From contig OY764016.1 of assembly GCA_963667805.1 (NCBI GenBank), forward strand, positions 1,874,725 to 1,938,724: a DNA stretch of 64,000 bases. The letters run 5' to 3'. The DNA is from Candidatus Poribacteria bacterium (lineage in GTDB: Bacteria; Poribacteria; WGA-4E; WGA-3G). This document shows, one piece after another, positions 16,334 through 59,766 of the stretch. Position numbers and translations under genes: made by a program. Position 1 is the stretch's first letter, and each line of letters starts with the position of its first letter. Below the pieces are notes generated by a model that was given only the letters and a program-made list of their open reading frames with translations, made no database searches and was not told the origin of the DNA.

Positions 16334-16372
16334 TCAATTCCAGTTACCTCAACTGCCGACGGGTTGGTGTGT

Positions 16373-17383: not shown

Positions 17384-17483
17384 GATGTCTCCTTATACAA
17401 TTCATAGACTGTTATCCGAATCAAATCTGGTATAAATTTAGTCAGATTTAATTGCGAAAGGTTCAAAGTTTTTAAATAGACGC

Positions 17484-21498: not shown

Positions 21499-21583
21499 TA
21501 GTTATTGATTTAAGGAACATTGTAGCAAAAAATTCGGTATAATACAATTGAAAACAGCGGACACCCAAACAGGAGGCATTCTG

Positions 21584-22156
21584 ATGGACATCCCGAAAAA
21601 CGGTTATGAACAAGCGGCAATATCCCTCGCTCCTATAAAAACCGATATGACGTTAGATGAATTTTGCCAATCCGACTTGGAGGGATATGAATACGTGAAG
21701 GGAGAATTGGTACCTATGGCACCACCGACAATGGAGCACGGTGATATCAGTATGAGTCTTAGCTTACTTTTAGGTGTTTACATTCGTGAAAATGAGTTGG
21801 GACGTTTATATCCTGCGGATACAGACTTTAAATTAGGGGACCGATTGGTTAAACCCGATATTGCGTTTGTTTCAACAGCGAGATTGCCTGAGAACAGACG
21901 CCAAGCATCCCCTGTAGCACCGGATCTGGCGGTTGAAGTTGTCTCACCGACAGATATTCAGTATCGTGTTGTCGAAAAGGCGTTTGCCTATCTCAACGCT
22001 GGCACGCGACTCGTCTGGATTGTTGAACCTGTGGGAAAGACGATAACCGTGTACCGCTCCAAAACAGATATCAAAGTGCTTACGCGCGAAGATACACTTA
22101 CGGGTGAGGATGTTGTTGAAGGGTTTTCGTGTCACGTCGCAGAACTTTTTGAATAG
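21584..22156 (+). CDS. Uma2-family (DUF820) putative restriction-endonuclease-like protein, copy 1
   Basis: GGAGG RBS. Conserved YEYVKGEL, PDIAFVS and PDLAVEVVSP motifs. Confidence 0.7.
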   Translation: MDIPKNGYEQAAISLAPIKTDMTLDEFCQSDLEGYEYVKGELVPMAPPTMEHGDISMSLSLLLGVYIRENELGRLYPADTDFKLGDRLVKPDIAFVSTARLPENRRQASPVAPDLAVEVVSPTDIQYRVVEKAFAYLNAGTRLVWIVEPVGKTITVYRSKTDIKVLTREDTLTGEDVVEGFSCHVAELFE

Positions 22157-22198
22157 ATACACCTAAGACAGGGTCAATTAATGAGGGAGGAACAGGAG

Positions 22199-22768
22199 AT
22201 GGATCCACAAAACACCCGCGAATTCAAACAAGAAATGCCCCTGCCTGAACACGGCAAGATGACGCTTGAGGAATTTCTTGAAAGTGATTTAGAGGGATAT
22301 GAATATGTAAAAGGAGAATTGATACCGATGCCAGCTGCCTCTGCGGAACACGGAATTGTCAGCGCGCGGGTTTTTCTACACTTGGGTTTGTACGTGCGCG
22401 AGAATCAACTCGGCGAGGTGGTCACTCCGGACACCGGTTTCCAGGTCGGTGAGCGTGTTCTGAAACCAGATATCGCTTTCCTTTCAACAGCACACTTGCC
22501 TGAGGACCTGAGCAAGGCATTCCCAGTGCCGCCAGATCTTGCGATTGAAGTCGTGTCCCCATCGGATGCTTTTCGGCGTGTCATTGAAAAAGCACTCGCC
22601 TATATCGAGGCAGGCACACAGATCGTCTGGGTGATTGAACCCGGATCAAAAACGGTAACCGTCTATCGTTCGGAAACAGACATCAAGCTACTTACGCGCG
22701 AAGATACACTTGACGGTGAAGATGTTGTCGAAGGCTTTTCGTGCCGAGTGGCACAACTTTTTGAATAA
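22199..22768 (+). CDS. Uma2-family (DUF820) putative endonuclease, copy 2 (tandem paralog)
   Basis: About 65% identical to copy 1 over the same motifs. GAGGGAGG RBS. Confidence 0.7.
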   Translation: MDPQNTREFKQEMPLPEHGKMTLEEFLESDLEGYEYVKGELIPMPAASAEHGIVSARVFLHLGLYVRENQLGEVVTPDTGFQVGERVLKPDIAFLSTAHLPEDLSKAFPVPPDLAIEVVSPSDAFRRVIEKALAYIEAGTQIVWVIEPGSKTVTVYRSETDIKLLTREDTLDGEDVVEGFSCRVAQLFE

Positions 22769-23557: not shown

Positions 23558-25879
23558 TTGTCCAAGATACTATTTCGCATTTCGTTATCTATAGGGATGT
23601 TTCTGCTGACATCTATCGGTATGAGTGACACACTTGAAAGCGTTCGTTTCAGCAACGCCGTTTGGGACGTTGAAATCTTTCCGCAGTCGCTTGCCGTGAA
23701 TGTCTATCCTGCGGGGACGGACCTAACAGTTCGGATTTCATCGGGTCAGATAGGATTGGGTCCTGTGACGGATGTTTCTCATGAAGGCAACGGTATCAGT
23801 TGGAGACTGCCGGAACGCGCCGTTACCGTTTATGTTGTATCGCTAAAGGATTCGCTAACGATTGAATTCATTCAAGACGATCCCGCAAACGACACGCAAA
23901 ATTTCACGTGGCCCGTTATTGAAAATACTGAATCCATCCACGGCTATATTTTTCCCTTTTTTGAGGGGAGTTACGTCCCGAAAGATGACCTCACATGGCG
24001 AGATTTTTTGCGCGATCGGGGACCGATAAACACAACAGCGGGTCTCTCTATGCCGTTTTGGGGCTTGGATCTCGGTGAGAGAACACTTACCTATATTCTG
24101 ACAAATCCGTTCAACAATCAAATCCATTTCAGTGAGACGGAAACGTCTGACTTAGGTATGCGGGTATCACACGCCTTCACGTCGAATTGGGAACAGAAAA
24201 GGTATGGGATGCGTCTTTCACTCGGTTCAGCATCACCGATTGAACCTGCGAAACAGTATCGGCAGTGGTTGATTGAGAAGGGTGAATTCGTTTCATTTGC
24301 TGAAAAGATCGAAAAGGTTCCAGCGGCGGAAAAATTGCTCGGTGCGGCGCACATCTACCTCTGGAACGGCAAACTTCTCAGTCAATACGATGTAACGGAT
24401 TGGAAGGCGTTTGCAACAAGACTGAGCGGCAATAGCGTCGTGGCAAAACAACTCTGGACGCAACTCAACACAGAGATGCAAGGAATTGTCCGAGACATTG
24501 CGCAGTCAGATTATGCCTCTACCCACAGCCGACGCGTTGTGAGTCGGGCATTCAGTGAACACCTTGAGAAACCCGGTTTTTATGATGCCGCTGCGTGGAC
24601 AGAGATTCCGCTTGGGTCAGAAATAGAGGTGTTGCTTTCACGAGATGTATCCACACTGTCGCTTCCAGAAATTTACCGACGGAACTGCCTGCTGCTTCAC
24701 GCAGCGTTCCCCGACACACTCCGGCATCCAGACGCATGGGGGGACGGTCCCTCTGTGAAACTCCTGGAGCGGTTTGCTGAGAGTGGATTGGACAGACTTT
24801 GGCTCGGTGTGGATTCATGGCAGGACGGATTTCGGCACCCGACTGCCGTCGCGAAGGCGAGAGAACTCGGTTATCTGATTGGACCCTACGATTCTTATCA
24901 TAGTATCCATCACCCTAACGAAAAGGATACATGGGAAACGGCACAGTTTGACCTGTCGCTTTATGAGACGGGTGCGATTGTCAACGCAGATGGCACGAAG
25001 AATCGGGGGTTTAAAAAGAAGGGGTATCACTTAAGTCCACTCATTGCGCAACCTTATGTTGAAGATCGCGTCAATGGCATCGTTGCACAGATGCCAATGG
25101 ACTTCAATACGTGGTTCATCGACTGCGACGCTTACGGTGAACTCTTTGACGATTATTCGCCATCCCATCCTGCAACGCAATTAGATGATATGAACGCACG
25201 ACTTGCCCGTATCGCATGGATTCGGGACATGCACAAGATGGTTGTCGGTTCAGAAGGCGGTGCTGCCTATTCTGCGGCGGTGCTTCACTTCGCGCACGGG
25301 ATGACGACCCCTGTCATCGGGTGGGGTGATCCTGATATGAAAGAAAAGACCTCACCTTACTATATCGGCGGGTACTGGCCCCCCGAGGCTCCAGCAATTC
25401 ACATAAAACAGGTGCCGCTCAAACCGAACTATTTGTATCACTATTACGATCCACGTTTCCGACTCCCCCTCTACCAGATTGTGTTCCACGATTCAGTGGT
25501 CACGACGAACCATTGGCTCTCTGGAAGCCTCAAATTCGAAAATGCTATCAAGACATTAGCACTCTTAGAGTTGCTTTACAACGTCCCGCCGTTATATCAT
25601 CTGAACATGGCGGAGTTTTCAAAGCATAAAACGTGGATAAAACGACACTACGCTTTCTTTTCGCCTCTACATAGAGAAATCGGCGGTCAGACGATGACCG
25701 ATTTTGAGTGGTTGCGCGATAACCGTCAGGTCCAGCGTACCGAGTTTGGGGATGCAGTCGAAATATTTGCAAATTTCGGGACGGAGCCTTTTGTATACAA
25801 AGATGTCGTGATTCCGGGCAAAAGCGTGGTTGCGAGGTGGATTGGAACAGGTAAAATTGCGGTGTTTTCTGTGGAATAA
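23558..25879 (+). CDS. large secreted hypothetical protein (possible glycoside-hydrolase-like)
   Basis: 773 aa with TTG start and signal peptide. No confidently recognised domain. Confidence 0.45.
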   Translation: MSKILFRISLSIGMFLLTSIGMSDTLESVRFSNAVWDVEIFPQSLAVNVYPAGTDLTVRISSGQIGLGPVTDVSHEGNGISWRLPERAVTVYVVSLKDSLTIEFIQDDPANDTQNFTWPVIENTESIHGYIFPFFEGSYVPKDDLTWRDFLRDRGPINTTAGLSMPFWGLDLGERTLTYILTNPFNNQIHFSETETSDLGMRVSHAFTSNWEQKRYGMRLSLGSASPIEPAKQYRQWLIEKGEFVSFAEKIEKVPAAEKLLGAAHIYLWNGKLLSQYDVTDWKAFATRLSGNSVVAKQLWTQLNTEMQGIVRDIAQSDYASTHSRRVVSRAFSEHLEKPGFYDAAAWTEIPLGSEIEVLLSRDVSTLSLPEIYRRNCLLLHAAFPDTLRHPDAWGDGPSVKLLERFAESGLDRLWLGVDSWQDGFRHPTAVAKARELGYLIGPYDSYHSIHHPNEKDTWETAQFDLSLYETGAIVNADGTKNRGFKKKGYHLSPLIAQPYVEDRVNGIVAQMPMDFNTWFIDCDAYGELFDDYSPSHPATQLDDMNARLARIAWIRDMHKMVVGSEGGAAYSAAVLHFAHGMTTPVIGWGDPDMKEKTSPYYIGGYWPPEAPAIHIKQVPLKPNYLYHYYDPRFRLPLYQIVFHDSVVTTNHWLSGSLKFENAIKTLALLELLYNVPPLYHLNMAEFSKHKTWIKRHYAFFSPLHREIGGQTMTDFEWLRDNRQVQRTEFGDAVEIFANFGTEPFVYKDVVIPGKSVVARWIGTGKIAVFSVE

Positions 25880-27005: not shown

Positions 27006-27062
27006 TTGCTGACGGGCTTCGCCACTCATTTTGGTTGTCAAGGTCCGTCAGCAAAAATTTTT
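27006..27062 (+). terminator. hairpin (10-bp stem TTGCTGACGG/CCGTCAGCAA, large loop) followed by A3T5 run downstream of tRNA-Asn
   Basis: Inverted repeat plus T-run read directly. Confidence 0.45.
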
Positions 27063-27108
27063 AACCTGTTCCTGTCCAAACTCGCCTTACTCTCCAGTGG
27101 AGGTCAAA

Positions 27109-27933
27109 ATGCCTAAGAAATTTACCGATGCTCAGCTTGATGAACTCTTAGCGAAAGGCTACTTAATTGTACCCGACTACTATTCAGGGGATCAACTTGC
27201 GGAGATGCAGGCTGCCCAACGCCGTGTACTCCCGACATGGGAAGAAGTTAAGGATGACCCGCCCCCCGGTAGAGCGACTTTGACCGAATTCCCGCCCGCT
27301 GAAATGGCTTTATTACGTGCGATCGTGGACCACGATGCCTGGGAATTCGCACGTAAGTTTCTGAAAACAGAGCATATTCACTACCGTGCTGGCTGTATGA
27401 TTGCACGCTACCCTGGATTTAAGGGACCCGGTGTCGATAGCGATCCGAGCAATTTGCACATCGATAACGGCAACAACTCACTGTTACCACAGTCCGAGAG
27501 TGCACGTGAATTCGGGCAAATCGGTTTTTGGGTACACCTTGAGGATGTTGACGCAGACCAAGCACCGCTGAGACTCCTCGCGAAGGAACACGGACGGGAT
27601 ACCTCTAAATACGAACCCCTTGTTTGTAAAGGCGGAACTGTCTGTATCTTCAATAACTATACGTTGCACTCAGCAAGCGATTATCTGCGGGAAGATGGAC
27701 AACGCTTCACATGGGGATTCGGCTTAGGACGGGCAGACCACTATTGGGAAGGCTTCCGGCACTATACAGACAAAGGTCGGAATCCAACGTTCTCGAAATT
27801 CATCGGCACGCTGACAGCGGCAGAGCGTGAGGTTTTTCGGTTCCCACCTGCTGGACATCCATACTATACGCCGCAAACGCTTCAGGCGTTAGAAGAACAG
27901 TATCCCGGCTGGAACGCCCGCGGCGAGTATTAA
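27109..27933 (+). CDS. phytanoyl-CoA dioxygenase (PhyH) family Fe(II)/2OG-type dioxygenase, copy 1
   Basis: GGAGG RBS before MPKKF. HID...H ligand pattern (NLHIDNGN, YTLHSASD). The ORF track's 27031 start is probably over-extended. Confidence 0.7.
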   Translation: MPKKFTDAQLDELLAKGYLIVPDYYSGDQLAEMQAAQRRVLPTWEEVKDDPPPGRATLTEFPPAEMALLRAIVDHDAWEFARKFLKTEHIHYRAGCMIARYPGFKGPGVDSDPSNLHIDNGNNSLLPQSESAREFGQIGFWVHLEDVDADQAPLRLLAKEHGRDTSKYEPLVCKGGTVCIFNNYTLHSASDYLREDGQRFTWGFGLGRADHYWEGFRHYTDKGRNPTFSKFIGTLTAAEREVFRFPPAGHPYYTPQTLQALEEQYPGWNARGEY

Positions 27934-31676: not shown

Positions 31677-32279
31677 TTACATTTTTTTAGCAGTCATAAG
31701 AATGGCTGCTAAATAAACAAATCCAAGGTATCGGACTGCGTATTTATCATAGCGAGTGGCAACACGACGAAACTGTTTCAAGCGATGAAAAAAACGCTCA
31801 ATGACATTTCGAAGTTTGTAGACGCCTTTATCATAAGGGCGTTCTTCAAGGCGGTTGCGCCGCGGACGAATCACCGCAACGCCCCCTTGAGCAAGAATCT
31901 CGGCTCTCAAAGGATCCGAGTCATAGGCAGTATCGGCAACGACACAGTCAAAGGTCTGTCCGGCAATCAATGCCGAGGCTTGGCGAACATCATGACTCGC
32001 ACCTGCCGTCAAGATAAAACGCAAGGGGCGAAAGGCATCACTCACCGCAGCGTGAAGTTTCGTCGTGAATCCCCCGTGGCTCCGACCCAAAGCTTGCTTG
32101 TTTTGACCGCCATTTTTTTTTCGGGGCACCTGCTGCGGAGGTGTGTGCCCGGACGATCGTCGAATCAACGAGGAGTGCCGAGATTTCACCCGCAGCATGG
32201 AAATGTTGATGAAGTTTTTCAAAAACACCCGCATCACACCATCTTCCAAAGCGGCGATAGACGCTGTTCCAATATCCAT
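31677..32279 (-). CDS. IS5-family transposase OrfB (DDE_Tnp_1 catalytic part; expressed as OrfAB fusion)
   Basis: DDE-region motifs (VVADTAYDSD, RNVIERFFHRLKQFRRVATRYDK). The in-frame continuation from OrfA requires loss of one A in the A9 run. Confidence 0.75.
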   Translation of the reverse strand: MDIGTASIAALEDGVMRVFLKNFINISMLRVKSRHSSLIRRSSGHTPPQQVPRKKNGGQNKQALGRSHGGFTTKLHAAVSDAFRPLRFILTAGASHDVRQASALIAGQTFDCVVADTAYDSDPLRAEILAQGGVAVIRPRRNRLEERPYDKGVYKLRNVIERFFHRLKQFRRVATRYDKYAVRYLGFVYLAAILMTAKKM

Positions 32280-42776: not shown

Positions 42777-44717
42777 ATGCATCAAGACAGACGACACCTC
42801 ATCATTGGCACAGCAGGACACGTTGACCATGGAAAAACCGCGCTCGTCGGGGCACTTACCGGTATGGAAACCGATCGGCTCAAGGAAGAGCAAGAACGTG
42901 GTTTGTCTATTGAGTTAGGGTTTGCCTATTTTGACCTCTCGGACGACTCGCGGGCAGGTATCGTTGACGTTCCAGGTCATGAAAAATTCATCCGAAGCAT
43001 GCTCTCCGGGGCTTACGGTATGGATATCGTCCTCTTCGTCGTTGACGCGAAAGAAGGCGTTCAGGAACAGACCCTCGAACATCTGGCAATCTTAGATCTG
43101 CTCGGCATCTCAAACGGTATCCTCGTCATGACGAAATCCGACTTGGCGACTGCTGATGAATTGGCAGAAGCAACCGAAATGACGCAGGAGATGCTCATCG
43201 GGACAAGCCTTGAAGCCATCCCAACTGTGAGTGTTTCCGCATTAACCGGCGCAGGTATTGAAACACTAAAAGAGACCATCGTCAAACAGGTAGCACTCGC
43301 GACGGAAACCGAAGAAAACGATGGTATCCCGAGATTATACGTTGACAGGGTTTTCACCGTTCAAGGGTTCGGCGTTGTTGTGACAGGCACGCTCATCGGT
43401 GGATCGATCCAGCGAGACCAGCGGATGGTGATTCTTCCACAGGGGCATACTGTGCGGATCCGAGGGATACAGGTCCATAATGAAACTGCACCCGTAGCGC
43501 AAGCCGGACAGCGGACAGCAGTGAACCTTTCCGGCGTCTCTGCCCAGGACCTCCAACGCGGCGATGTCCTTTGCCCAATTGATTTCTCACAAGTGACGGA
43601 CAATATTGACGTGTCGATGCAAGTGCTGTCCTCATTTCCAAGGATACTTGAACATTGGACGCGTCTCCGGGCGTATCTCGGCACTCGCGAAATATTTTGC
43701 AGATTAATCCTACTCGTGGACGATGCCATTTTGCCGGGGGATACCATTCAGGTTCAACTCCGCTTAGAACAACCCATCCTAACGTTCAGAGGCGACAGAA
43801 TTATTTTACGCGATTTTTCAGCGCAATATACAGTCGGGGGTGGTGAAGTTATTAACCCATTTGCCCCAAAGCATAAGCGGTTCACCCCTGAAACCATCGC
43901 TACTTTAGCACAATGGGAAGAAGCCGATGATGCCCAGGTCGTGAACACTGTCTTAGAAAATAGCGAGTCACTCTGCGTGCCAGAGTCCTTCCTGCATTAC
44001 TATTTACCACAGTCACAGACGAACGTGAATGCGATCTTAACCGGCTTGGAAGCAGACGGGAAAATTGTGCGCTGGGATAAATCGGGCAGGTCGCCGCTCG
44101 TTTCTGATGCTGTTCGGACGGCAAATATCAAAGAGAAAATTATAGAAACGTTGACAGCATTCCATTCGGCAGAACCCCTCCTTGCCGGTCAAAATGCTTC
44201 ACAACTGCGTCGAGAACTCAAATTGGACGAAATCGGCTTTGAGAAACTCGAAAACCAACTCATTACCGAGGGGCAACTCGCCAAAGACGGCAATCTTCTC
44301 CGATTGGCATCTCACGAAATCCAGTTTTCCGAAGAGGAAGAAACCGCGAAGGAGAGACTCGAAAAACTATTCTTGGAAGCAGGTATGAATACACCCACTT
44401 TCAACGAACTCAGCACGCACCTTCCAGACTATACACCGCAGTTACTGGAATCCACGTTTTTCGCACTTCTGAACTTAGGGCAGTTTGTCAAAATAGCGGA
44501 TAACTTCTTTATCCACAAAACCGTTTTTGAGGAGATACAGGAATTATTAACCACTTACCTTCGCAAAAATGATACAATAACCGTTGCCGAATTTCGAGAA
44601 ATGGCACAAACTTCTCGAAAATATGCGGTGCCGTTTTTGGAATACTGCGATAGCCGGAACCTCACGATCCGAGACGGGAATATCCGTAAGTTGCATCCGC
44701 GGCACTTGCAGGCATAG
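42777..44717 (+). CDS. selB: selenocysteine-specific translation elongation factor SelB
   Basis: [22 protein letters not shown]-domain. 646 aa with C-terminal winged-helix region. Immediately followed by tRNA-Sec. Confidence 0.9.
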
Positions 44718-45818: not shown

Positions 45819-46044
45819 AACTAACCCTCATTATAGCATTTAACACCGGTCCCATCTTCAATCGCGCCCTCTACATATTTCCGAGAAATTTTCAGACTTT
45901 ACATTAAATCCGATTTTTGATATACTAATGCCTGAAGCACACATTTTTGCAGCACTGCAAAATACCTCGCGTTTCCTTCATGACACGGTTTCTAAAGAAG
46001 TAAGAAGTTGGGATTGTCTCACCATCAGCACAAGGAGGGGGAAC

Positions 46045-47772
46045 ATGAACAGACATATTTTCTCTGAAGCATCAAACTGTTGTTCACACATAAAACGCGT
46101 AAGTTTCATTATCTTCGTCGTAAGTTTAGTATTTGCTGCGACACCGAGTCTCATCACAGCTGGAACCACACCGGATATCCAACCCGTCACGAACGAGATG
46201 TTACTCTCATCACAAGACGACCCTGAAAGCTGGCTGATGTATGGACGGGACTACAGAAGCTGGCGATATAGTCAACTCACACAGGTTAACACTGAAAACG
46301 TCAAAAAACTCGTCCCGAAATGGGCATTTCAAATTGGAACGCCCTTCGATAAGTTTGAATGCACGCCACTTGTCGTCAATGGTGTGATGTTCATCACCAC
46401 TCCCTACAGCACTATCTACGCTGTGGACGCAAGAACCGGCAAGGAAATATGGCGGTATGATTATGAACTCCCTGACGATTTAGCGATCTGCTGCGGTATG
46501 GTGAACCGTGGTGCTGCTATCTTGGGCGATAAAATCTTTTGGGTAACGCTTGACGCACACCTCCTCGCCCTCGATGCGAAGACCGGCAGGGTCCTCTGGG
46601 ACAGAGTGGTCGGAGATCTGACGAACGCTGAATCCCTCACTGTCGCCCCGTTAGTCGTCAAAGACAAAGTGATCGTCGGCATATCAGGCGCAGAATACGG
46701 CATCCGAGGCTATATCGATGCGTATTACGCCGAAACAGGTGAACAGGCATGGCGATTTTACACCGTCCCGTCAAAAGATGAACCCGGCGGCGACACATGG
46801 GAAGGCGATTCATGGATGACAGGTGGCGGATCCGCTTGGGTCACAGGTTCCTACGACCCGGAATTGAATCTCGTCTACTGGGGAACGGGTAACCCGGCAC
46901 CAGACTGGAACGGTGCTGTCCGGAGAGGCGACAACCTCTATACCGACTGTATCGTTGCGTTGGATGCCGATACCGGAAAACTCAAATGGTATTTTCAAGC
47001 CACACCCCACGATCTATGGGATTGGGATGGCGTGAGTGAACCCGTCCTGATCGATATGGAGATAGATGGCGCACCGGTCAAAGCGTTGATGCAAGCGAAT
47101 CGCAACGGCTATTTCTATGTGCTTGATAGAACCAACGGAAAATTTCTATACGCAAGCACTTACTGTGAACAGAACTGGTCGGCTGGACTCGATGAAAACG
47201 GACGTCCTACCGTCCTACCCGGCGTGTCCACCTCAGAAGAAGGCACGATTCGCGTCTGTCCCGGCGTTGAAGGCGGCAAGAACTGGCCCCCTTCAGCCTA
47301 TAACCCGCTCACAAATTACCTCTATATCCCATCGTTGGAACTCTGCGGCTCCTATCATCAAGGGCGCGTTTTCTATGTGAAAGGGCTACCCTACCTCGGA
47401 AGTGGTATGACAGCAGACAGGGACGAAGCTGGCAACATGGAGATGTGGGGACATATCAGTGCAATCGATGTTTCTACAGGTGAGATTAAATGGCGCCACA
47501 AAACGAACTTCCCACAATGGGGTGGATGCCTCACAACGGCAGGAGGTCTCGTTTTTGCGGGGGATTTAGAGGGCAGATTCATGGCACTCTCGGCAGAAAC
47601 CGGCGAAGTGCTTTGGGATTTTCAGACTGGATCCGGGGTTCTCGCACCCCCCATTACCTATCGACTCGACGGTGTCCAATATGTTGTGATAGCGTCAGGT
47701 GCTGTGAAATATGCTGAAGTCAACGCTCGCGAAGGCGGAACCCTTTTTGTGTTCGCGCTCTTTGATGAATAG
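46045..47772 (+). CDS. PQQ-dependent alcohol/methanol dehydrogenase, XoxF/ExaF-like (signal peptide; vicinal CC; DWD motif)
   Basis: AGGAGG RBS at the MNRHIF start. Signal peptide. Eight-bladed PQQ propeller W-motifs. Vicinal disulfide AICCG. Asp-x-Asp (WDWDG) at the position recalled as lanthanide-type. Confidence 0.85.
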   Translation: MNRHIFSEASNCCSHIKRVSFIIFVVSLVFAATPSLITAGTTPDIQPVTNEMLLSSQDDPESWLMYGRDYRSWRYSQLTQVNTENVKKLVPKWAFQIGTPFDKFECTPLVVNGVMFITTPYSTIYAVDARTGKEIWRYDYELPDDLAICCGMVNRGAAILGDKIFWVTLDAHLLALDAKTGRVLWDRVVGDLTNAESLTVAPLVVKDKVIVGISGAEYGIRGYIDAYYAETGEQAWRFYTVPSKDEPGGDTWEGDSWMTGGGSAWVTGSYDPELNLVYWGTGNPAPDWNGAVRRGDNLYTDCIVALDADTGKLKWYFQATPHDLWDWDGVSEPVLIDMEIDGAPVKALMQANRNGYFYVLDRTNGKFLYASTYCEQNWSAGLDENGRPTVLPGVSTSEEGTIRVCPGVEGGKNWPPSAYNPLTNYLYIPSLELCGSYHQGRVFYVKGLPYLGSGMTADRDEAGNMEMWGHISAIDVSTGEIKWRHKTNFPQWGGCLTTAGGLVFAGDLEGRFMALSAETGEVLWDFQTGSGVLAPPITYRLDGVQYVVIASGAVKYAEVNAREGGTLFVFALFDE

Positions 47773-47864
47773 TTTTCAGTTATCGGTTGTCGGTTATCAG
47801 TTAAGAGACGCTTCGGTTGATTCAGAAATCTCTTTAACCGAAAACCAATAGATAGGAGGGTACC

Positions 47865-48734
47865 GTGAAACACTATATTCTCTTGTGGGCAGCACTTTTC
47901 ATACTGTCTGCTCCGATGTTGCACACTGCAGACGCTGTCGATGCCTTGGAAGAAATTCGAGCAAAGGGTGTCTTAACGGTCTGTATGGACATCCGAAATC
48001 TGCCTTACTCCAACGTTGATCCCGAACTTCCTGGATTATATGTTGAGATCGCTCATCTACTGGCAGCGGAACTCGGTGTTAAGTTGGAATTCCACTGGCT
48101 TAGCACCCTCCGTGATAGTCTGCTGGCTGACATGATACGCGGACATTGCGACTGTGTGATCGGAGTTCCCATTGAGGAGCGCGCCATGGCTGAAGCGATT
48201 CAATTGGGGGAAAACGTTGATTTCTCTACGCCCTTCTACGGGACGGGATACGTATTGGTAAAACAGAAAAGTAATCAAGCGTCACCGAAAACGCTGGAGG
48301 ACATTAAGTTAGAAACGATTGGGACAGAAGCGGGTTCCATCGCAAGCGATGTCCTTCGACAGACGGGATATAAGCGTCGCGTTTATCGCTCACAAATTGC
48401 CGTCTTGGACGCTCTCAAGAAAGGGCAAATTGCTTACGGATATGTCTGGTCAAATATTGGGTGGTTGATTGAAAAGGGTTCCCGAATTCAGCAGCCAGAA
48501 CACACGGATACTGTTTATCCTGAATTAGAGATTGTTAAAGAATACACCCCTGAAGCGCGTCTCCGTTGGAATATCGCTATTGCTTTTGGCAAAGATACAT
48601 CAACACGAGAAACACGTGAACTTCAAGATGTTGTTAACACAATTATCGAACAGAAATGGAGTGAAGAAAAACTCAGAGAACTCTCTGAAAAGTATTATTT
48701 GCCTTACTTCGCTCCGTTTCAGGAGGATGAATAG
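47865..48734 (+). CDS. quinoprotein-dehydrogenase-associated periplasmic binding protein (MxaJ/XoxJ-like, SBP family 3)
   Basis: GTG start with AGGAGGG RBS. Signal peptide. Family-3 solute-binding fold. Lies between the PQQ dehydrogenase and the cytochrome c. Confidence 0.65.
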   Translation: MKHYILLWAALFILSAPMLHTADAVDALEEIRAKGVLTVCMDIRNLPYSNVDPELPGLYVEIAHLLAAELGVKLEFHWLSTLRDSLLADMIRGHCDCVIGVPIEERAMAEAIQLGENVDFSTPFYGTGYVLVKQKSNQASPKTLEDIKLETIGTEAGSIASDVLRQTGYKRRVYRSQIAVLDALKKGQIAYGYVWSNIGWLIEKGSRIQQPEHTDTVYPELEIVKEYTPEARLRWNIAIAFGKDTSTRETRELQDVVNTIIEQKWSEEKLRELSEKYYLPYFAPFQEDE

Positions 48735-48736
48735 AA

Positions 48737-49660
48737 ATGATGTATTATTCTACCCGCGTTCGAACCTCTACCGTCCGAATAACGTGGTGCATTCTTCTCC
48801 TCTCTCTGGGGCTAAGTCTCTTCTTTTTTTCTGTCGTAAATGCCCAAAACTTAGAGGTGGATATTGCCCCCGAAGCACCGAGAGACGTGAGTTATGACGA
48901 AGACGTTATCGACGGCGCGTTCTACTTCCGTTTGATGTGTTGGAATTGTCACGCCCAACAAACACGCGGTGGCAGAGCACCCGATCTCTTTAAACCGCAG
49001 TGGCTTTACGGATGGACTGATGACGGTATCTTCCAGACTGTATTCAACGGACTTCCGGGGACCGAGATGCAGAAGTTTGGTGGCAAACTTTCTGATGAAG
49101 CAATTAATATGATTGTTGGCTACGTTCGTTCGGAACAAGCGAAAGCGGCGGGGGTCTCTTTAGAGGAAGCGAAACCGACTCAGGACTGGACGCCATATAT
49201 GGAAGGCGATGTCAAAGCAGGAGAAGCCATTTTCTTCTCAGAAGGGTACGCTTGCGGTAAGTGCCACACAGTTCACGGGAGAGGTGCCACCGGAACAGGC
49301 AGCGAAATAGGTCCCGATATGACGTATGTCGCTCGCACCCGTTCACCGCAATTCATTGTCGAGTCTATTCTCAATCCACGCGCGTATATCGCGCCTGAAT
49401 ATGAAATGATTACCATTTTCACGAAAGACGGGCAGGAAATCACAGGTAGGAAGCGCCACCAATACGATCACAGAGACAGATTAGACCCTGAAACGATCCA
49501 GCTCCTCGACAATTCTGGGAAGTTGTGGACAACCTACCTCATAAAGGATATAAGGAGCACCAGCGTTCCACAAGCAGGTGTTATGCCTGAAAACTTCGCA
49601 GATATTCTGTCAGTCAAACAGATGCACGACCTTTTGGCGTATCTATTCACGTTGAAATAA
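48737..49660 (+). CDS. diheme cytochrome c (XoxG-like partner)
   Basis: Two CxxCH motifs (CWNCH, CGKCH) and an N-terminal signal-anchor. Confidence 0.75.
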   Translation: MMYYSTRVRTSTVRITWCILLLSLGLSLFFFSVVNAQNLEVDIAPEAPRDVSYDEDVIDGAFYFRLMCWNCHAQQTRGGRAPDLFKPQWLYGWTDDGIFQTVFNGLPGTEMQKFGGKLSDEAINMIVGYVRSEQAKAAGVSLEEAKPTQDWTPYMEGDVKAGEAIFFSEGYACGKCHTVHGRGATGTGSEIGPDMTYVARTRSPQFIVESILNPRAYIAPEYEMITIFTKDGQEITGRKRHQYDHRDRLDPETIQLLDNSGKLWTTYLIKDIRSTSVPQAGVMPENFADILSVKQMHDLLAYLFTLK

Positions 49661-49718
49661 CCGTCAGCAGTATGGCTGACTGCTATTCTGTCATTTAACC
49701 GCAAGGAAAATTAAAAAG

Positions 49719-50522
49719 ATGATTGGTGTGATTATTAATGGGGCATGTGGCCGTATGGGACGGCTTATTATCCGAGGTGTTACTGAACAAACCGATATGG
49801 AAATCGTCGGCGCGATTGAGTTCCCGGAACACCCACAGCTCGGGAGTGATGCCGGTGTTGTTGCCGGCATCGGAGAAATAGGCGTCGCGGTTACAGGTAA
49901 CCTTGAAGATGTACTTGACAACGCAGATGTTGTCATCGAATTCTCGAAACCTGAGGCTACTCTGGACCACCTCCGACAAGTCGTCAATGCCGACAAAGCG
50001 ATGATAATTGCAACAACCGGATATGACCCTGATGAACTCGCCACTGTCGAAGAACTCGCATCACAGATCCGTTGCGTAATGGCACCCAACATGAGTCTCG
50101 GTGTCAATGTGATGATTCAGGCACTGGAATTAATCGCCAAAGCCCTCGGGGACGATTACGACATTGAAGTGATAGAGGCACATCACAATCACAAAGCAGA
50201 TTCACCCAGCGGCACGGCACTCCGCTTAGCGGAAACCGTTGCTCAGGCATTGGGGCGAGATTTAGATGAGGTCGGTGTCTACGGTCGCCACGGTATCGTT
50301 GGCGCAAGACCGAAAAAACAGATAGGCATTCATGCAGTTCGAGGGGGTGATATCGCCGGCGACCATACAGTATTGTTCGCAACAGAGGGTGAGCAACTCA
50401 GCGTCGTCCACCGAGCACACAGCCCAGAGGCTTTCGCTAAAGGCGCAATCCGCGCAGCGAGATGGGTCATCGACGCCCCTAAAGGATTACATGATATTAG
50501 CGAAGTCCTGTTTCAGGAATAG
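49719..50522 (+). CDS. dapB: 4-hydroxy-tetrahydrodipicolinate reductase, copy 1
   Basis: GACGRMGR NAD(P)-binding motif and EAHHNHKADSPSGTA DapB signature; 267 aa. Confidence 0.85.
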   Translation: MIGVIINGACGRMGRLIIRGVTEQTDMEIVGAIEFPEHPQLGSDAGVVAGIGEIGVAVTGNLEDVLDNADVVIEFSKPEATLDHLRQVVNADKAMIIATTGYDPDELATVEELASQIRCVMAPNMSLGVNVMIQALELIAKALGDDYDIEVIEAHHNHKADSPSGTALRLAETVAQALGRDLDEVGVYGRHGIVGARPKKQIGIHAVRGGDIAGDHTVLFATEGEQLSVVHRAHSPEAFAKGAIRAARWVIDAPKGLHDISEVLFQE

Positions 50523-50593: not shown

Positions 50594-51391
50594 ATGATTC
50601 GTGTTGCTGTCACCGGTGTTTGCGGTCGTATGGGACGTTGCATCACGCGCGGCATTGCCCAACACCGCAATATGCAACTCGTTGGAGCCGTCCAATACCC
50701 CTCACATCCACAGATCGGAAGTGATGCGGGTGTTGTCGCCGGTATCAGTGAGATTGGCGTAACCATTACAGGCAAACTTGACGACGTACTTCACCGTTCA
50801 GATGTTGTCATCGAATTTTCAAAGCCTGAAGCAACCCTGGACCACCTCCAACACGTCGTCGATGCAGATAAAGCCATGGTTCTTGGAACAACCGGTTTTA
50901 CCGCAGACGAACTCGCGACCCTCCAAGCGCTTGCATCACAGATCCGTTGCGTAATGGCACCCAACATGAGTCTCGGTGTCAATGTAATGATACAAGCATT
51001 GGAATTAATTGCCAAAACCCTGGGAAATGATTATAATATTGAAGTGATAGAGGCACATCACAATCACAAAGCAGATTCACCCAGTGGCACAGCACTCCGT
51101 GTAGCGGAGACGCTTACCACGGCACTTGAGCAAGATTTAGACGAGGCGTGTGTTTACGGTCGCCACGGCATCGTTGGCGCAAGACCGAAAAAACAGATAG
51201 GCATTCATGCAGTTCGAGGGGGCAACATTGCCGGGGATCATACAGTGTTGTTCGCAACAGAGGGTGAACAACTCAGCGTCATCCATCGAGCACACAGTCC
51301 AGAGGCTTTCGCCAAAGGTGCAATCCGCGCAGCGGAATGGATAATCGACGCGCCTAAAGGGTTACACGATGTTAGCGAAGTCCTGTTTTAA
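50594..51391 (+). CDS. dapB: 4-hydroxy-tetrahydrodipicolinate reductase, copy 2 (tandem paralog)
   Basis: About 75% identical to copy 1, with the same signature. Same conserved 25-bp leader before the ATG. Confidence 0.85.
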   Translation: MIRVAVTGVCGRMGRCITRGIAQHRNMQLVGAVQYPSHPQIGSDAGVVAGISEIGVTITGKLDDVLHRSDVVIEFSKPEATLDHLQHVVDADKAMVLGTTGFTADELATLQALASQIRCVMAPNMSLGVNVMIQALELIAKTLGNDYNIEVIEAHHNHKADSPSGTALRVAETLTTALEQDLDEACVYGRHGIVGARPKKQIGIHAVRGGNIAGDHTVLFATEGEQLSVIHRAHSPEAFAKGAIRAAEWIIDAPKGLHDVSEVLF

Positions 51392-53597: not shown

Positions 53598-54341
53598 ATG
53601 ACAGACGAACAGAAATATCTATTTGATCTGCAAGGCTTTATTGTCCTGAAGAGTGTTATCCCCCAGGCAGTCGTCGAGGCGTGTAACGCTGTGTTAGATC
53701 AGTACGAGAATATGCCACCCGACGACTATCCACCCCCGCTGTGCCTCGGCACACAGCGAACGGAGAAAGAACTCTACATCTCTAACATCTTAGAGGCAGA
53801 CAGTGTATTCAATACGCTGATCGACATTCCGGAGGTCCTGGACGTAATTCAAGGCGTAACCGGGGGGCCGTATCGACTCAATCACACCTACACAATCTAC
53901 CGGTGGGGAGGTGGTTATACCGGGTTGCACATGCACGGAACACCGATTATCCCGAAATGCCAATATCATTGTAAAAACGGAGAGATGGTATCAACGTTAA
54001 CAAAAGCGGTCTTTCCGATGCTGGATTGTGATATGGAGGACGGGTGCTTCGCTGTTATACCGGGGGCACATAAGAGCAATTTCCCAAAACCTTGGGGAAG
54101 CCACCCCGATGAAAATCCTGTGCTGACCCCGATCCCAGCAAAAGCAGGAGATGCCATCATTTTTACAGAGGCACTTACACACGGGTCTGTCATCAATGTT
54201 TCCGATAAACCGCGTCGGACCCTCTATTACTGCTACAGCATCGGCTATATGCCAGATTGGGGCGGCCAAGGTCTACATTTCAGCCCGAACGTTATGGACA
54301 GCCTCAGTGAATCCCAACAGTCAATCCTTCATCTAAAATAA
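53598..54341 (+). CDS. phytanoyl-CoA dioxygenase (PhyH) family dioxygenase, copy 2
   Basis: 247 aa; His/Asp ligands (RLNHTYTIY... HMHGTP..., HGSV). Confidence 0.65.
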   Translation: MTDEQKYLFDLQGFIVLKSVIPQAVVEACNAVLDQYENMPPDDYPPPLCLGTQRTEKELYISNILEADSVFNTLIDIPEVLDVIQGVTGGPYRLNHTYTIYRWGGGYTGLHMHGTPIIPKCQYHCKNGEMVSTLTKAVFPMLDCDMEDGCFAVIPGAHKSNFPKPWGSHPDENPVLTPIPAKAGDAIIFTEALTHGSVINVSDKPRRTLYYCYSIGYMPDWGGQGLHFSPNVMDSLSESQQSILHLK

Positions 54342-55893: not shown

Positions 55894-58800
55894 ATGAAAA
55901 ACGCCATTTTAATCCTTAGCATAGTCTGTCTTACGCTCCTCGTATGTGTAGAAACGGAGTCTGAGCAAATCCTTACCTACACCGTCGCCGATGGATTAAT
56001 AGGTCCCGTTGTCCCTGTCGTTTTTCAGGACAGTCGGGGGGATCTATGGTTCGGTTCCGATCGGGGTGGGGTGAGCCGATTCGATGGGATCAGGTTTGAA
56101 TCTTACATCGGATCTCCAGATACTTCTGAGAACGCGCCCACCTCCAATGTAGGACCTGGGGCACTCCTTGGACAGACACGTCAAATCGTCGAAGACAAAT
56201 GGGGACATATCTGGTTCCTCACGCATTTCCGCGCAGAAAACTCAGGGAGAGTCAGTCGGTTTGACGGTTCTTCTATTAATCTGATAGGCACCGGCAATTC
56301 GCTGCTGGTTGACGATCACGGCGATATATGGGTCGGTGAAAACCAGCAACTTACGAAGTACATCACTCCAGGTGTCCAACGCCTGCCCCAAGCACATCCA
56401 AACGAAATTATAGGCGAAGATCTGCTCCGCTCAAGGGATTTCACAATAAACATTATCTTTCAAAGCGCTGACGGAACGATTTGGATCGGTGGCAGCGAAG
56501 GTGAGGAACAACCACACGGTGTAATCCTCAGTTTCCGAGAGAATCGTTGGGTAGAGGACCCCTTAAAAATCACGGACAGTGATAACGCAAACGAGAAAAC
56601 GGATGATGGAACACAGCGGGTTCATCCAAATATTGGATTTACACGCTACGACTTGTCAAATCTTAACGCTGTGAATGCGATCGAAACGATAGGCGAAGAT
56701 ACTTTTGGAAACCTGTGGTTCGGTGGCTACAATCTTCTCTTACGTTTTGATGGGAAAGTCTTTGAGAAAATCCTCCCTTTAGCTTGGGGACAGAGTGGAT
56801 CCATAGGTAGTAGACCTGCCTCAATACAGAGACTGGCATCAATACAGAATGACACGAAAAATCGAGTCTGGTTCAGCGATGGACGCACGACAAGATGGTG
56901 GCATGACTCTCAGCACGGAAACCTACTGGGGTTTCTTGAGCTCGAGGATGCATGGGGCAATCTATGGTTTACTGACGAAGCTGGAGCACATCAATACGAT
57001 GCCAACCTCACGCAACTGCCCGACCGTATCAACAGTGGACTCGGCGTTGAAGGGATTCATACGATTTATGAAGCCATAGATGGTAAATTGTGGTTTGGCC
57101 ACGATAATGGCGTAACATCATTTGACCCAACACCTGCTATCAGCACACACGCTGGCCTCGGAACCAATAGAGTCCGGATGATATTTGAGGACAGTCGAGG
57201 TTACCTCTGGTTTAGTGTGCCAGGCGGGGTCGCCCGTTACGATGCAGAATCCGAAGAACTTACCACACATATTTTCAGAGTGAGTTCAGTGCAAAATGAT
57301 TCATCGCGCGCCTCTCAAACTGACAATAGAACTATGGAACGCGTTCGGCCCCTTCGAACTGAAATCGAAAAAATATTTGAAGTTGGCGGGCACGTCTGGT
57401 TTATTGACGAACCAGGGGTGGGGGGGAGTTCCACGCGATTGCGATACACTTTCTTTCGATACGCAAATGGCAAGTTCGGTCAAGTGTCTATTCCCATCCA
57501 AACAGCAATCGGGCCCGGTGGCGAACGGTCAGATACCAACACAAATGTTCTCGTCCACGAAGGCGAACATACTTGGATGGCTTTCGGAGGGCACCTCTTT
57601 AGAGCCGACGCAACGGGATTATTACGGTTGACAAACACCGGCTTTCAAAGAATCCCGTTTCAAGAAATCGGTCCGAACACTACGCCTACGCCAATACCCC
57701 CAATAACATTCGGTGCAGCCGCCATCACCGATGTATACAGAGATTCCAACGGTAGATTATGGGTCCACCTCGATAACGGAGAGTCTCTACGCTATCCGAA
57801 AGCAATTAACACGGCAACAAATCGTCCGAGTAAACCCGAAACCCTTCCCCTTAAAGCGACAACCCTGTTAAAAATTGCATCAGGAAGCAAATGGTTCTTT
57901 AACGCCGTAACGGGAAAATTGATACTTTGGAGTGATACTGAACTCGGTAGCCCACTTCCGCTCGATGGAGAGTCGAGTACGCTCCCGATTGCTGTTTGGA
58001 AGAACCCAAGAGCGGAAAATAACCGAATAACTTTTCTTTTTCCCGATGCTCTCAAGACTTATCACGGCACAACGCTCATTTCTCTTGAGTCCATTGAACT
58101 CGCTGAACTACAAGACTCCCTAACGACGCAGGACGGCGTGCTCTGGTTAGCAACATCCCGCGGGGTAATCCGCTATGATGGCGAAAAGGCGAAAACCTAT
58201 ACAACAAAAGAAGATGGCTTTCTCGTTGACAACGTGAAAGATGTCATGGAGGATAGCCGCGGAAATATATGGTTCGCGACATGGGGCGGCGGCACTGTCC
58301 GATACGACGGTGAAACCTTTTATAACCTCACAACAAAAGACGGGCTCACTCATAACAATATCTCGAAAATTCATGAATCTTCCAATAAAGATATTTGGTT
58401 TACAACCGAAGGGGGCGTCACACAATATACACCCACACGTGGTGGACTGCCAGAATGTCGACTGACCTCCCTTGAATCTGATAAAATTTACACCGACCTT
58501 TCATCGAGTTTAACGCTACCCTCGCGCGGAACGAAGATATTAAATATCCAAGGTATCAGTCCGCTCCGAGAAGGGCTTTCCTATCGATTTAAATTAATTG
58601 GGCTGGACACCCCTACATGGACAAACGTTTCGGCACAGGAGTTCTCGCTTCTGGCAACAGGTGCCGGCGGAACCTCCGACGCCTGGACCCCTTCTACCAC
58701 CTCCGTGTCGACACCGCAGCATACCATGCGCGACAGTGGTATTGTTCAAGAACTCCAAAATCAAGATGGGATTCTGCGTATCCGATATACAGGGCTTAAA

Positions 58801-59766
58801 GCAGGCAATTACAGGTTCCTGGTCACGGCATTCCGTAAAGATTGGCCCTATACACATACGCCAGCAGTGGTGGATTTCAGTATATCACCACCCCTCTGGA
58901 CGCGGTGGCGGACTTATCTTCCAACAGTCATCTTTATGACCGTTGTTCTAACGCTCATTGGTCGTCTGATTGTAAACCGTCGCCATACCCTACAACTGCG
59001 TAATGAAGTGCGTCAAAGGGAAGAAGCGGAGATACAACGTATCCGTGCTGAACTGAGCGAAGCGCAGAATATTCAGATGGGACTTCTACCGACCGAAGCC
59101 CCGGATACGAAAGGGTTTGATGTCGCAGGTATGTCGGTCCCCGCAACACAGGTAGGTGGCGACTTCTACGATTACCTCACCGTCGCGAACGGACAGACCG
59201 CTATCGCGGTCGCAGATGCCGCCGGAAAAGGATTAAGAGGCGCAATGAATGCCGTGCTAACGAATGGGATGCTATATGAAGTCTCGCGTTTCAAGTCCGA
59301 ATCGGGTATCATTCTCACGGATCTCAATGCCGGGTTAGCCCCACGCATGTACGGACCGAGTTTCATCGCGCTGAACCTCGCTGTGCTTGATGAAAATAAT
59401 AAACGCGTTGACTATGCGAACGGCGGACAACCCTATCCTGTTCTTAAGCGAGGGGCGGAGATCATTGAAATTGAAAATAGCGATCTTCCACTTGGCAGTA
59501 TGAAAAAGGTGGAGTATGAGTCGGTCACCTTCGATTTAGATGCGGGTGACGTCCTAATTTTTCATAGCGACGGTCTGATTGAGGCGCTCAATACAGAAGA
59601 GGAAATGTATGGCACGGAACGTTTAAAGGAAGTGGTTTCAGAAATTCCTGATGGTTTCACTGCGACAGAAGTTATCCAAAGCCTCGTTGACGATGTTCAA
59701 AACTTCGTGGGAGAAGCGGAGCAATACGACGATATGACAATCGTTGTTATCAAAATCCCCTTTTAA
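55894..59766 (+). CDS. giant sensor: periplasmic Reg_prop/Y_Y_Y beta-propeller region - TM helix - coiled coil - PP2C-type (SpoIIE/RsbU-like) serine phosphatase
   Basis: 1290 aa with signal peptide. Reg_prop-like repeats. TM LPTVIFMTVVLTLIGRLIV. Coiled coil REEAEIQRIRAELSEAQNIQ. Phosphatase motifs GGDFYDY, DAAGKG, FHSDGL. Confidence 0.8.
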   Translation: MKNAILILSIVCLTLLVCVETESEQILTYTVADGLIGPVVPVVFQDSRGDLWFGSDRGGVSRFDGIRFESYIGSPDTSENAPTSNVGPGALLGQTRQIVEDKWGHIWFLTHFRAENSGRVSRFDGSSINLIGTGNSLLVDDHGDIWVGENQQLTKYITPGVQRLPQAHPNEIIGEDLLRSRDFTINIIFQSADGTIWIGGSEGEEQPHGVILSFRENRWVEDPLKITDSDNANEKTDDGTQRVHPNIGFTRYDLSNLNAVNAIETIGEDTFGNLWFGGYNLLLRFDGKVFEKILPLAWGQSGSIGSRPASIQRLASIQNDTKNRVWFSDGRTTRWWHDSQHGNLLGFLELEDAWGNLWFTDEAGAHQYDANLTQLPDRINSGLGVEGIHTIYEAIDGKLWFGHDNGVTSFDPTPAISTHAGLGTNRVRMIFEDSRGYLWFSVPGGVARYDAESEELTTHIFRVSSVQNDSSRASQTDNRTMERVRPLRTEIEKIFEVGGHVWFIDEPGVGGSSTRLRYTFFRYANGKFGQVSIPIQTAIGPGGERSDTNTNVLVHEGEHTWMAFGGHLFRADATGLLRLTNTGFQRIPFQEIGPNTTPTPIPPITFGAAAITDVYRDSNGRLWVHLDNGESLRYPKAINTATNRPSKPETLPLKATTLLKIASGSKWFFNAVTGKLILWSDTELGSPLPLDGESSTLPIAVWKNPRAENNRITFLFPDALKTYHGTTLISLESIELAELQDSLTTQDGVLWLATSRGVIRYDGEKAKTYTTKEDGFLVDNVKDVMEDSRGNIWFATWGGGTVRYDGETFYNLTTKDGLTHNNISKIHESSNKDIWFTTEGGVTQYTPTRGGLPECRLTSLESDKIYTDLSSSLTLPSRGTKILNIQGISPLREGLSYRFKLIGLDTPTWTNVSAQEFSLLATGAGGTSDAWTPSTTSVSTPQHTMRDSGIVQELQNQDGILRIRYTGLKAGNYRFLVTAFRKDWPYTHTPAVVDFSISPPLWTRWRTYLPTVIFMTVVLTLIGRLIVNRRHTLQLRNEVRQREEAEIQRIRAELSEAQNIQMGLLPTEAPDTKGFDVAGMSVPATQVGGDFYDYLTVANGQTAIAVADAAGKGLRGAMNAVLTNGMLYEVSRFKSESGIILTDLNAGLAPRMYGPSFIALNLAVLDENNKRVDYANGGQPYPVLKRGAEIIEIENSDLPLGSMKKVEYESVTFDLDAGDVLIFHSDGLIEALNTEEEMYGTERLKEVVSEIPDGFTATEVIQSLVDDVQNFVGEAEQYDDMTIVVIKIPF

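Follow-up and report, generated by a model that had tools for sequence, protein, structure and literature searches.

The question raised by positions 45928-49660 of the DNA shown here, part of a 64,000-nucleotide stretch of a Candidatus Poribacteria bacterium (contig OY764016.1, assembly GCA_963667805.1; the whole 64-kb stretch is called the window below), is whether three adjacent genes encode a lanthanide-dependent alcohol oxidation system and, if so, how they relate to the systems already known. The original prediction, made from the letters alone, had read them as an xoxF-xoxJ-xoxG-like cluster for a dehydrogenase dependent on pyrroloquinoline quinone (PQQ), a binding protein and a cytochrome. 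We found three plus-strand open reading frames (ORFs) where it had placed them, with the start of the first moved to 46045, and comparison with relatives makes it likely that they form a functional, vertically inherited three-gene poribacterial operon for periplasmic alcohol oxidation, in which a lanthanide would be the most likely cofactor. We propose that the dehydrogenase works like XoxF or PedH while belonging to neither clade. The genes are as follows, with lengths in amino acids (aa).

46045..47772, plus strand: PQQ-dependent alcohol dehydrogenase, 575 aa, with signal peptide and D-x-D metal site (longest ORF 45928..47772)
47865..48734, plus strand: orphan periplasmic family-3 solute-binding protein, 289 aa, MoxJ/XoxJ-like, with a GTG start and AGGAGG upstream
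48737..49660, plus strand: periplasmic diheme cytochrome c, 307 aa, with a cL/PedF-like N-domain (CWNCH) and a TIGR02603 C-domain (CGKCH)

The dehydrogenase matches the NCBIfam model TIGR03075 (PQQ dehydrogenase, methanol/ethanol family) at 661.7 bits (E = 7.6e-199; cut-off 480.05) over model positions 4-527 of 530, a score that sets it apart from a chance pattern, and the NCBI name of the poribacterial protein is already methanol/ethanol-family PQQ dehydrogenase. Against TIGR04528, the 'acido-empty-quinoprotein group A', it scores 521.8 bits, under the cut-off of 650. Its database relatives number in the thousands, and those at 83-96% identity include sequences labelled Candidatus Poribacteria. 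Matches to structures in the PDB rank as follows.

6ZCV/6ZCW, PedH, lanthanide-dependent ethanol dehydrogenase: 466 bits (best)
6DAM, XoxF: 401 bits
1KV9, type II quinohemoprotein alcohol dehydrogenase (ADH): 397 bits
1FLG, ExaA: 359 bits
various entries, MxaF enzymes: about 300-350 bits

The XoxF structures score 401, 372 and 361 bits against 466 for PedH, and it is by PDB score alone that XoxF1, XoxF2 and a second XoxF5 were compared, all of them falling under PedH. An AlphaFold2 (AF2) model of the dehydrogenase, with a mean predicted local distance difference test score (pLDDT) of 87.3, ranks the structures as the sequence does, with PedH at the top (Foldseek TM-score 0.88-0.90, against 0.85-0.88 for XoxF and MxaF). 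The full-length alignment to PedH and the AF2 model together support an eight-bladed beta-propeller fold. The prediction of eight W-motifs is only roughly correct: six canonical motifs are found with the strict A-x-D-x-x-T-G-x-x-x-W pattern, the others being degenerate. A signal-peptide-like N-terminus, which had been predicted for the dehydrogenase, is seen by eye on all three proteins.

For the active site we aligned the dehydrogenase with references whose identity was fixed by gene context: the Paracoccus mxaFJGI locus, Sinorhizobium xoxF5 with its xoxJ, a Methylocella XoxF3-like locus with cox genes, a Stutzerimonas quinohemoprotein ADH and the Sphingobium pedF locus. C149-C150 (within AICCG), E217, N289, D326, D328 and R353 all fall in the expected reference columns, and the active-site residues are all invariant in 38 poribacterial orthologs of 74-100% identity. 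Residues are counted from the Met at 46045, and the codons of these motifs were checked.

46489..46494, plus strand: codons of the vicinal Cys149-Cys150 pair (disulfide ring over PQQ), placed by alignment and invariant in the 38 poribacterial orthologs
46903..46911, plus strand: codons of D287-W288-N289, with N289 the Asn metal ligand and D287 a clade-specific one-residue insertion
47020..47028, plus strand: codons of D326-W327-D328, the catalytic Asp and the lanthanide-diagnostic Asp

In the diagnostic column the dehydrogenase carries D326-W-D328, within a WDWDG segment, and the corresponding residues are D-Y-D in XoxF5 and D-F-D in PedH, as against D-Y-A in MxaF and D-F-T in the quinohemoprotein ADH. 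The second Asp is therefore aligned with the lanthanide Asp of PedH and XoxF5, and the key observation of the original prediction was correct, as were its calls of the vicinal Cys-Cys and of WDWDG. All 120 of the 120 best database homologs share D-x-D. Under the rule of the marine survey by Voutsinos, Banfield and McClelland (PMC11996626), D-x-D denotes a lanthanide and D-x-A/T/S denotes calcium. A lanthanide is thus the probable cofactor because of the second Asp, and it is from the D-x-D motif alone that we infer lanthanide dependence of the dehydrogenase.

A second feature of the metal site sets the enzyme apart from all references. The loop that reads NPAP-W-N in MxaF, XoxF, PedH and the quinohemoprotein ADH reads NPAP-D287-W-N289 here. 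Every member of a clade of Poribacteria, Verrucomicrobia and Acidobacteriota sequences has this single extra residue, placed two positions ahead of the Asn ligand. D287 is invariant in Poribacteria, and Asp occupies the inserted position in 110 of the 120 nearest homologs. In 24 of these homologs the Asn ligand is replaced by Tyr, His or Arg while the inserted Asp is kept, and in four others Ser stands at the inserted position and Asp at that of the Asn. The persistence of the extra carboxylate where the Asn is lost hints that D287 matters. If so, the additional ligand could make the enzyme differ from XoxF and PedH in its choice of metal or its redox tuning, and there is some chance, though a small one, that the clade is a biochemically unexplored rare-earth quinoprotein family in which the metal site is distinct and the diheme cytochrome a partner of its own.

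These residues and their neighbours suggest how the module would operate. The 575-aa eight-bladed quinoprotein would bind PQQ beneath the Cys149-Cys150 disulfide and hold a metal with Glu217, Asn289, Asp326 and Asp328, the second Asp making a trivalent lanthanide the most likely ion. It would draw two electrons from an alcohol or aldehyde and pass them singly to the presumably co-translated diheme cytochrome c. Docking on the dehydrogenase would be the task of the cL/PedF-like N-domain of the cytochrome, and onward transfer of the electrons to the respiratory chain that of the TIGR02603 C-domain. The orphan MoxJ/XoxJ-like binding protein may serve as an accessory factor in maturation or activity, as has been proposed for XoxJ.

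Several points weigh against a lanthanide-dependent operon of this kind. E. coli mGDH, a Ca/Mg enzyme, also carries D-x-D, as do most of its computationally identified reference relatives (PMC11996626), and the motif is therefore not proof of lanthanide use. We found no characterised enzyme in the clade of the dehydrogenase, including among the 30 tested PQQ dehydrogenases tabulated with that survey, which comprise only MxaF, XoxF1/2/4/5, ADH types 2a, 2b and 4, mGDH and sorbose dehydrogenases (PMC11996626). The substrate cannot be read from the sequence. The loop that holds D287 (residues 281-300) is the least confident part of the AF2 model, with pLDDT of about 67-71. The binding protein and the N-domain of the cytochrome score well under the curated J and G family cut-offs, and no genes for handling formaldehyde or aldehydes adjoin the operon. 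An ORF survey and Pfam scans found no pqq genes in the 64-kb window, in agreement with what had been predicted for the surroundings of the cluster. Likewise, no TonB-dependent receptor or other lanthanide-uptake gene was seen in the window in Pfam scans of the larger ORFs and by eye, homology searches having been aimed at pqq genes only.

The alternative that fares best under these points is that the PQQ alcohol dehydrogenase is active with Ca2+, or is promiscuous for metals, despite its D-x-D motif. It draws on the mGDH precedent, on the absence of the clade from the 30 tested enzymes and of lanthanide-uptake genes from the window, and on the composition of seawater, with roughly 10^-2 M calcium and about 10^-11 M lanthanides (PMC11996626). 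Set against this, all soluble enzymes of the methanol/ethanol family among the 30 tested that carry the second Asp depend on a lanthanide, and in the Ca enzymes its place is taken by A, S or T (PMC11996626). Moreover, D328 is invariant in Poribacteria and in 120 of the 120 nearest homologs, and D287 adds a carboxylate beside the site, an increase in negative charge that would by inference suit a trivalent ion. We therefore regard calcium use or metal promiscuity as unlikely, and favour the lanthanide-dependent operon.

Where does this dehydrogenase belong among the known quinoproteins? It is 40% identical to XoxF5, 38% to MxaF and 42-45% to PedH. In a neighbor-joining (NJ) tree with 100 bootstraps, in which XoxF is represented by XoxF5 and one XoxF3-like sequence only, a clade of MxaF, XoxF5 and the XoxF3-like sequence (bootstrap 100) excludes it, as does a clade of PedH, Sphingobium and Phaeobacter sequences (bootstrap 100). 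Because both of these clades exclude the dehydrogenase, it is by its tree position neither a xoxF in the phylogenetic sense nor a pedH/exaF, and the xoxF label of the original prediction is not supported. It groups instead with sequences from uncultured Verrucomicrobia, Sumerlaeota, Planctomycetes, Acidobacteriota, Latescibacterota and Pseudohongiella. Bootstrap support for the deep nodes is low (46-67%, and 46-60% for those that bear on a sister relationship to the PedH clade).

The nearest relatives outside Poribacteria (41-58% identity) are those of TIGR04528 and of the PQQ-ADH radiation in Acidobacteriota and Verrucomicrobiota. They share the Asp insertion and D-x-D with the poribacterial enzyme, and many have the same diheme cytochrome adjoining. 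In many of these relatives, however, Tyr or His has replaced the Asn ligand and the motif reads D-W-D-A; in the poribacterial enzyme the Asn and D-W-D-G are retained. A further difference is the binding protein, which is confined to a branch of Poribacteria and Verrucomicrobia. One relative of 54% identity lies on a 2.2-Mb contig in a locus (L004, 5144-10352) of alternating genes: diheme cytochrome, PQQ dehydrogenase, diheme cytochrome, PQQ dehydrogenase. Both of its dehydrogenases have Tyr or His for the Asn ligand and D-W-D-A instead of D-W-D-G.

Among characterised enzymes PedH/ExaF (PQQ-ADH type 2b, PDB 6ZCW/6ZCV) is the best match in both sequence and structure, at 466 bits and a TM-score of 0.88-0.90. 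They have in common D-x-D, the vicinal Cys-Cys and the Glu/Asn/Asp ligands. Each is a single-subunit enzyme, soluble and located in the periplasm, that has a c-type cytochrome as its acceptor and a family-3 binding protein nearby, as in the Sphingobium locus of pedF, binding-protein and dehydrogenase genes. PedH, however, lacks the Asp insertion before the Asn ligand that D287 represents, and its partner PedF is a monoheme c550, whereas the cytochrome here is diheme and does not match TIGR04494. With the mxaFJGI and XoxF-XoxG-XoxJ systems the module shares a three-part logic, the F-J-G gene order of mxaFJG (dehydrogenase, binding protein, cytochrome) and, in the case of XoxF, D-x-D. It differs in lacking the small subunit of MxaFJGI and in its cytochrome, which is diheme and about 300 aa long where the cytochrome cL of methanol dehydrogenase is monoheme and about 180 aa.

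The binding protein belongs to Pfam SBP_bac_3, and its gene sits in a setting typical of MoxJ/XoxJ, as an orphan between a quinoprotein dehydrogenase gene and that of its cytochrome; the ORF survey and locus comparison found no ABC (ATP-binding cassette) permease or ATPase gene adjacent to it. Its best NCBIfam match is TIGR03871 (quinoprotein-dehydrogenase-associated solute-binding protein) at 67.5 bits, against a cut-off of 212.15, and it scores 37.6 bits on TIGR03870 (MoxJ), against 258.1. A profile of the poribacterial orthologs nevertheless aligns by hhalign with a small MoxJ/XoxJ profile over nearly its full length (99.3% probability, E = 1.7e-20), a match whose specificity is only partly shown, the comparison having been confined to the MoxJ/XoxJ profile. 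The motifs LxVCxDxxNxPxS, CDxVIGVP and PYYxxGYV are common to the binding protein and MoxJ/XoxJ. By these comparisons the protein is J-like in position and distant homology and is not a family member by the curated test, so that the predicted MxaJ/XoxJ likeness stands in the fold family and the profile match and falls short at the cut-offs. Its database relatives number 174 at E <= 1e-5, and the best 120 of the 174 are all poribacterial. The low pLDDT of its AF2 model, 59, reflects this shallow, Poribacteria-only alignment.

The cytochrome combines two domains of different affinity. Its residues 157-304 match TIGR02603 at 76.6 bits (cut-off 68.15), a model on which its verrucomicrobial ortholog reaches 115.4 bits, and residues 148-307 match PDB 7ZS0 (E = 2e-25), the structure of Kustd1711, in its C-terminal half. 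Kustd1711 is a diheme cytochrome c of the anammox bacterium Kuenenia with a high potential tuned by Ca2+ (PMC11791136). The two proteins are both secreted, diheme and of the His/Met type, and their C-terminal heme domains are homologous, including the region of a beta-strand 'nose' insertion. The resemblance is limited to this C-terminal half, the N-domain here being cL/PedF/CcoP-like, and Kustd1711, unlike the cytochrome here, has no known link to a quinoprotein.

The N-domain, which carries the CWNCH heme motif (the C-domain motif being CGKCH), is of class I and weakly similar to CcoP, to cytochrome cL (PDB 2C8S, E = 6e-5) and to c550. The cytochrome scores 26.8 bits on MoxG (TIGR03872), against a cut-off of 147.8, and does not match PedF (TIGR04494), whereas the verrucomicrobial ortholog, with the same N-domain, scores 56.8 bits on MoxG and 44.5 bits on PedF. 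When the N-domain is aligned with MoxG and PedF, six further invariant positions are shared besides the heme motif and the axial Met. The MoxG and PedF families are made up of monoheme proteins of about 130-190 aa, and a diheme protein of 307 aa falls outside them. By position and distant homology the cytochrome is thus G-like and, judged by its family scores, is not a member of MoxG; of the predicted xoxG-like diheme cytochrome, the two CxxCH motifs are present and the G-family assignment is not sustained.

With these assignments in hand, a genuine XoxF-XoxJ-XoxG methanol dehydrogenase system orthologous to XoxF1-5 appears very improbable. The D-x-D motif, the mxaFJG-like gene order, the distant likeness of the binding protein to MoxJ/XoxJ and of the cytochrome N-domain to cL, and the place of XoxF 6DAM as third-best PDB match would all fit it. 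However, the fully supported MxaF/XoxF clade leaves the dehydrogenase out, PedH outscores every XoxF, the clade-specific Asp insertion is missing from XoxF and MxaF, and the cytochrome, a diheme protein whose C-domain is of the TIGR02603 type, falls far below the MoxG cut-off.

The poribacterial operon that we favour is conserved as a unit. In a scan of one genome per species, about 38 poribacterial genomes, many of which are complete chromosomes of 5-7 Mb, carried the dehydrogenase gene (73-100% identity), and wherever a poribacterial contig extends beyond this gene the trio is complete. Its neighbours there are nearly always lipA on one side and two dapB genes in tandem on the other. Against an ortholog of 89% identity, the ratio of nonsynonymous to synonymous substitution rates (dN/dS) is 0.06 for the dehydrogenase, 0.15 for the binding protein and 0.10 for the cytochrome, values that are rough given a dS of about 1 and that indicate purifying selection. 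Vertical inheritance is likely, and the module would be a core trait of the Poribacteria, a dominant phylum of sponge symbionts. Among 42 loci from outside the phylum, about 18 have a homologous diheme cytochrome adjoining the dehydrogenase, as has L004. Because this cytochrome adjoins the dehydrogenase in other phyla and the binding protein occurs in one branch only, the dehydrogenase-cytochrome pair is, as far as gene neighbourhoods tell, the conserved core and the binding protein an addition in that branch.

A link to PQQ itself comes from two relatives of 56-58% identity, one of them from a Verrucomicrobia metagenome-assembled genome (MAG), in which a module of dehydrogenase, two binding proteins and diheme cytochrome adjoins pqqE, pqqD and pqqC and a pqqB-like gene. 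Their pqqE, pqqD and pqqC products pass the equivalog cut-offs of the NCBIfam Pqq models (TIGR02111, TIGR02109, TIGR03859). Since pqq genes lie beside the module in these two relatives, the clade is tied to PQQ. In both loci (L002, 10306-13698, and L003/L052, the latter from the Verrucomicrobia MAG nzgw608) the pqq genes lie tail-to-tail with the module, and small unrelated genes, for a HEPN protein and a 23S rRNA-intervening-sequence protein, are inserted within the pqq clusters.

In Poribacteria the picture is different in that no pqq genes are found within 8 kb of the dehydrogenase gene in any poribacterial locus, and a tblastn search of the 64-kb window with genuine PqqB/C/D/E gave no match better than E = 0.3. 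When the verrucomicrobial PqqC was compared with a collection of 5.8 billion proteins, the best 120 matches listed were all at least 65% identical to the query and none was labelled Poribacteria. That PQQ can be acquired from outside the cell is well known, as in the case of E. coli Gcd. The pqq results might suggest that the protein is not a working quinoprotein here, being either an 'empty', non-catalytic beta-propeller or an apo-enzyme without access to PQQ, and so might its 522 bits on the 'acido-empty' model and the habit of sponge papers of counting PQQ domains among eukaryote-like proteins. This, too, is very unlikely: the TIGR04528 cut-off is missed and that of TIGR03075 exceeded, the catalytic and cofactor residues are invariant, purifying selection is strong, the cytochrome is dedicated, clade relatives directly adjoin pqqBCDE, and the PqqC search, all 120 of its listed matches being at least 65% identical to the query, gave no evidence of absence.

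The operon proposed here would assign a concrete role in respiration to a gene that is conserved throughout Poribacteria, a phylum of sponge symbionts that is abundant but uncultivated. That function would be the periplasmic oxidation of small alcohols with transfer of electrons to a c-type cytochrome, probably requiring both a rare-earth metal and PQQ, and lanthanide-dependent alcohol oxidation would, if this is right, be part of the physiology of sponge symbionts. A literature search found no paper linking Poribacteria with lanthanides or quinoprotein dehydrogenases, and the sponge papers found that mention PQQ repeats file them under eukaryote-like proteins; at least one such PQQ-repeat protein of a sponge symbiont would appear to be a complete enzyme module. 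D-x-D quinoproteins reportedly account for 61% of marine PQQ dehydrogenases and are present in 14 of the 33 phyla of Tara MAGs (PMC11996626). Because marine surveys already report D-x-D quinoproteins as dominant in the ocean and spread over many phyla, the module extends the known picture and does not change it. For lanthanide biochemistry the clade offers a natural metal-site variant, with an extra Asp, and an unusual diheme acceptor, and the inserted Asp and the diheme partner are the two traits that might repay experiment.

The local sequence also bears on how the genes are started and expressed. The dehydrogenase probably starts at ATG 46045 and not at 45928, because an AGGAGG lies 7 nt upstream of the former and close full-length relatives are 574-576 aa long, which fits a start at this codon. 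The in-frame ATG at 45928 has no ribosome-binding site, and the 39 extra residues that it would add are missing from full-length relatives. Shine-Dalgarno sequences precede all three starts, with AGGAGG also upstream of the cytochrome ATG, which follows the stop codon of the binding-protein gene after 2 nt. Two candidate signals flank the operon.

45898..45926, plus strand: candidate promoter of the sigma-70 type upstream of the dehydrogenase gene, reading TTTACA-17-TATACT and including an extended TG (consensus match only)
49663..49680, no strand assigned: short G+C hairpin that may mark the end of the operon, located after the cytochrome stop codon and before dapB

The promoter candidate is weak evidence, the regional count of such sites equalling that expected from shuffled sequence, and the hairpin was scored on the minus strand by the scan, its plus-strand T-run being weak.

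Directly downstream of the operon lie two tandem dapB (dihydrodipicolinate reductase) paralogs of 78% identity (49719-50522 and 50594-51391), a duplication also kept in a related poribacterial genome. The radical-SAM gene upstream, considered as a candidate for PqqE, encodes a lipoyl synthase (LipA) with a LIAS_N domain. It stands between the operon and a gene for the selenocysteine-specific elongation factor SelB (42777-44717, two genes upstream of the operon), from which the organism probably synthesises selenoproteins.

Elsewhere in the window, a metallo-beta-lactamase ORF at 20656-21498, considered as PqqB, has an N-terminal helix-turn-helix domain and gives no tblastn match to PqqB. On the minus strand at 14762-18644 a two-domain multicopper oxidase of 386 aa adjoins an Fe3+-type ABC binding protein and a fused permease, an arrangement that suggests ferroxidase-linked iron uptake. 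The PhyH family is expanded in Poribacteria, and the window holds a Pfam PhyH (phytanoyl-CoA dioxygenase) protein at 53598-54341 and, at 27031-27933, a second protein that resembles the family by eye only. Adjacent paralogous ORFs at 21548-22156 and 22181-22768 resemble Uma2-family endonucleases, and an ORF at 31677-32279 resembles an IS5-like transposase, in both cases as judged by eye from the translations. Proteins of 'two-component regulator propeller' repeats, secreted or membrane-bound, are encoded at 3552-4778 and 55894-59766, the latter 1290 aa long and with an ortholog that ends in a SpoIIE-type phosphatase domain. The window further encodes a secreted CotH-kinase protein of 847 aa with a lamin-tail domain (10813-13356) and a GH129 glycoside hydrolase of 773 aa (23558-25879).

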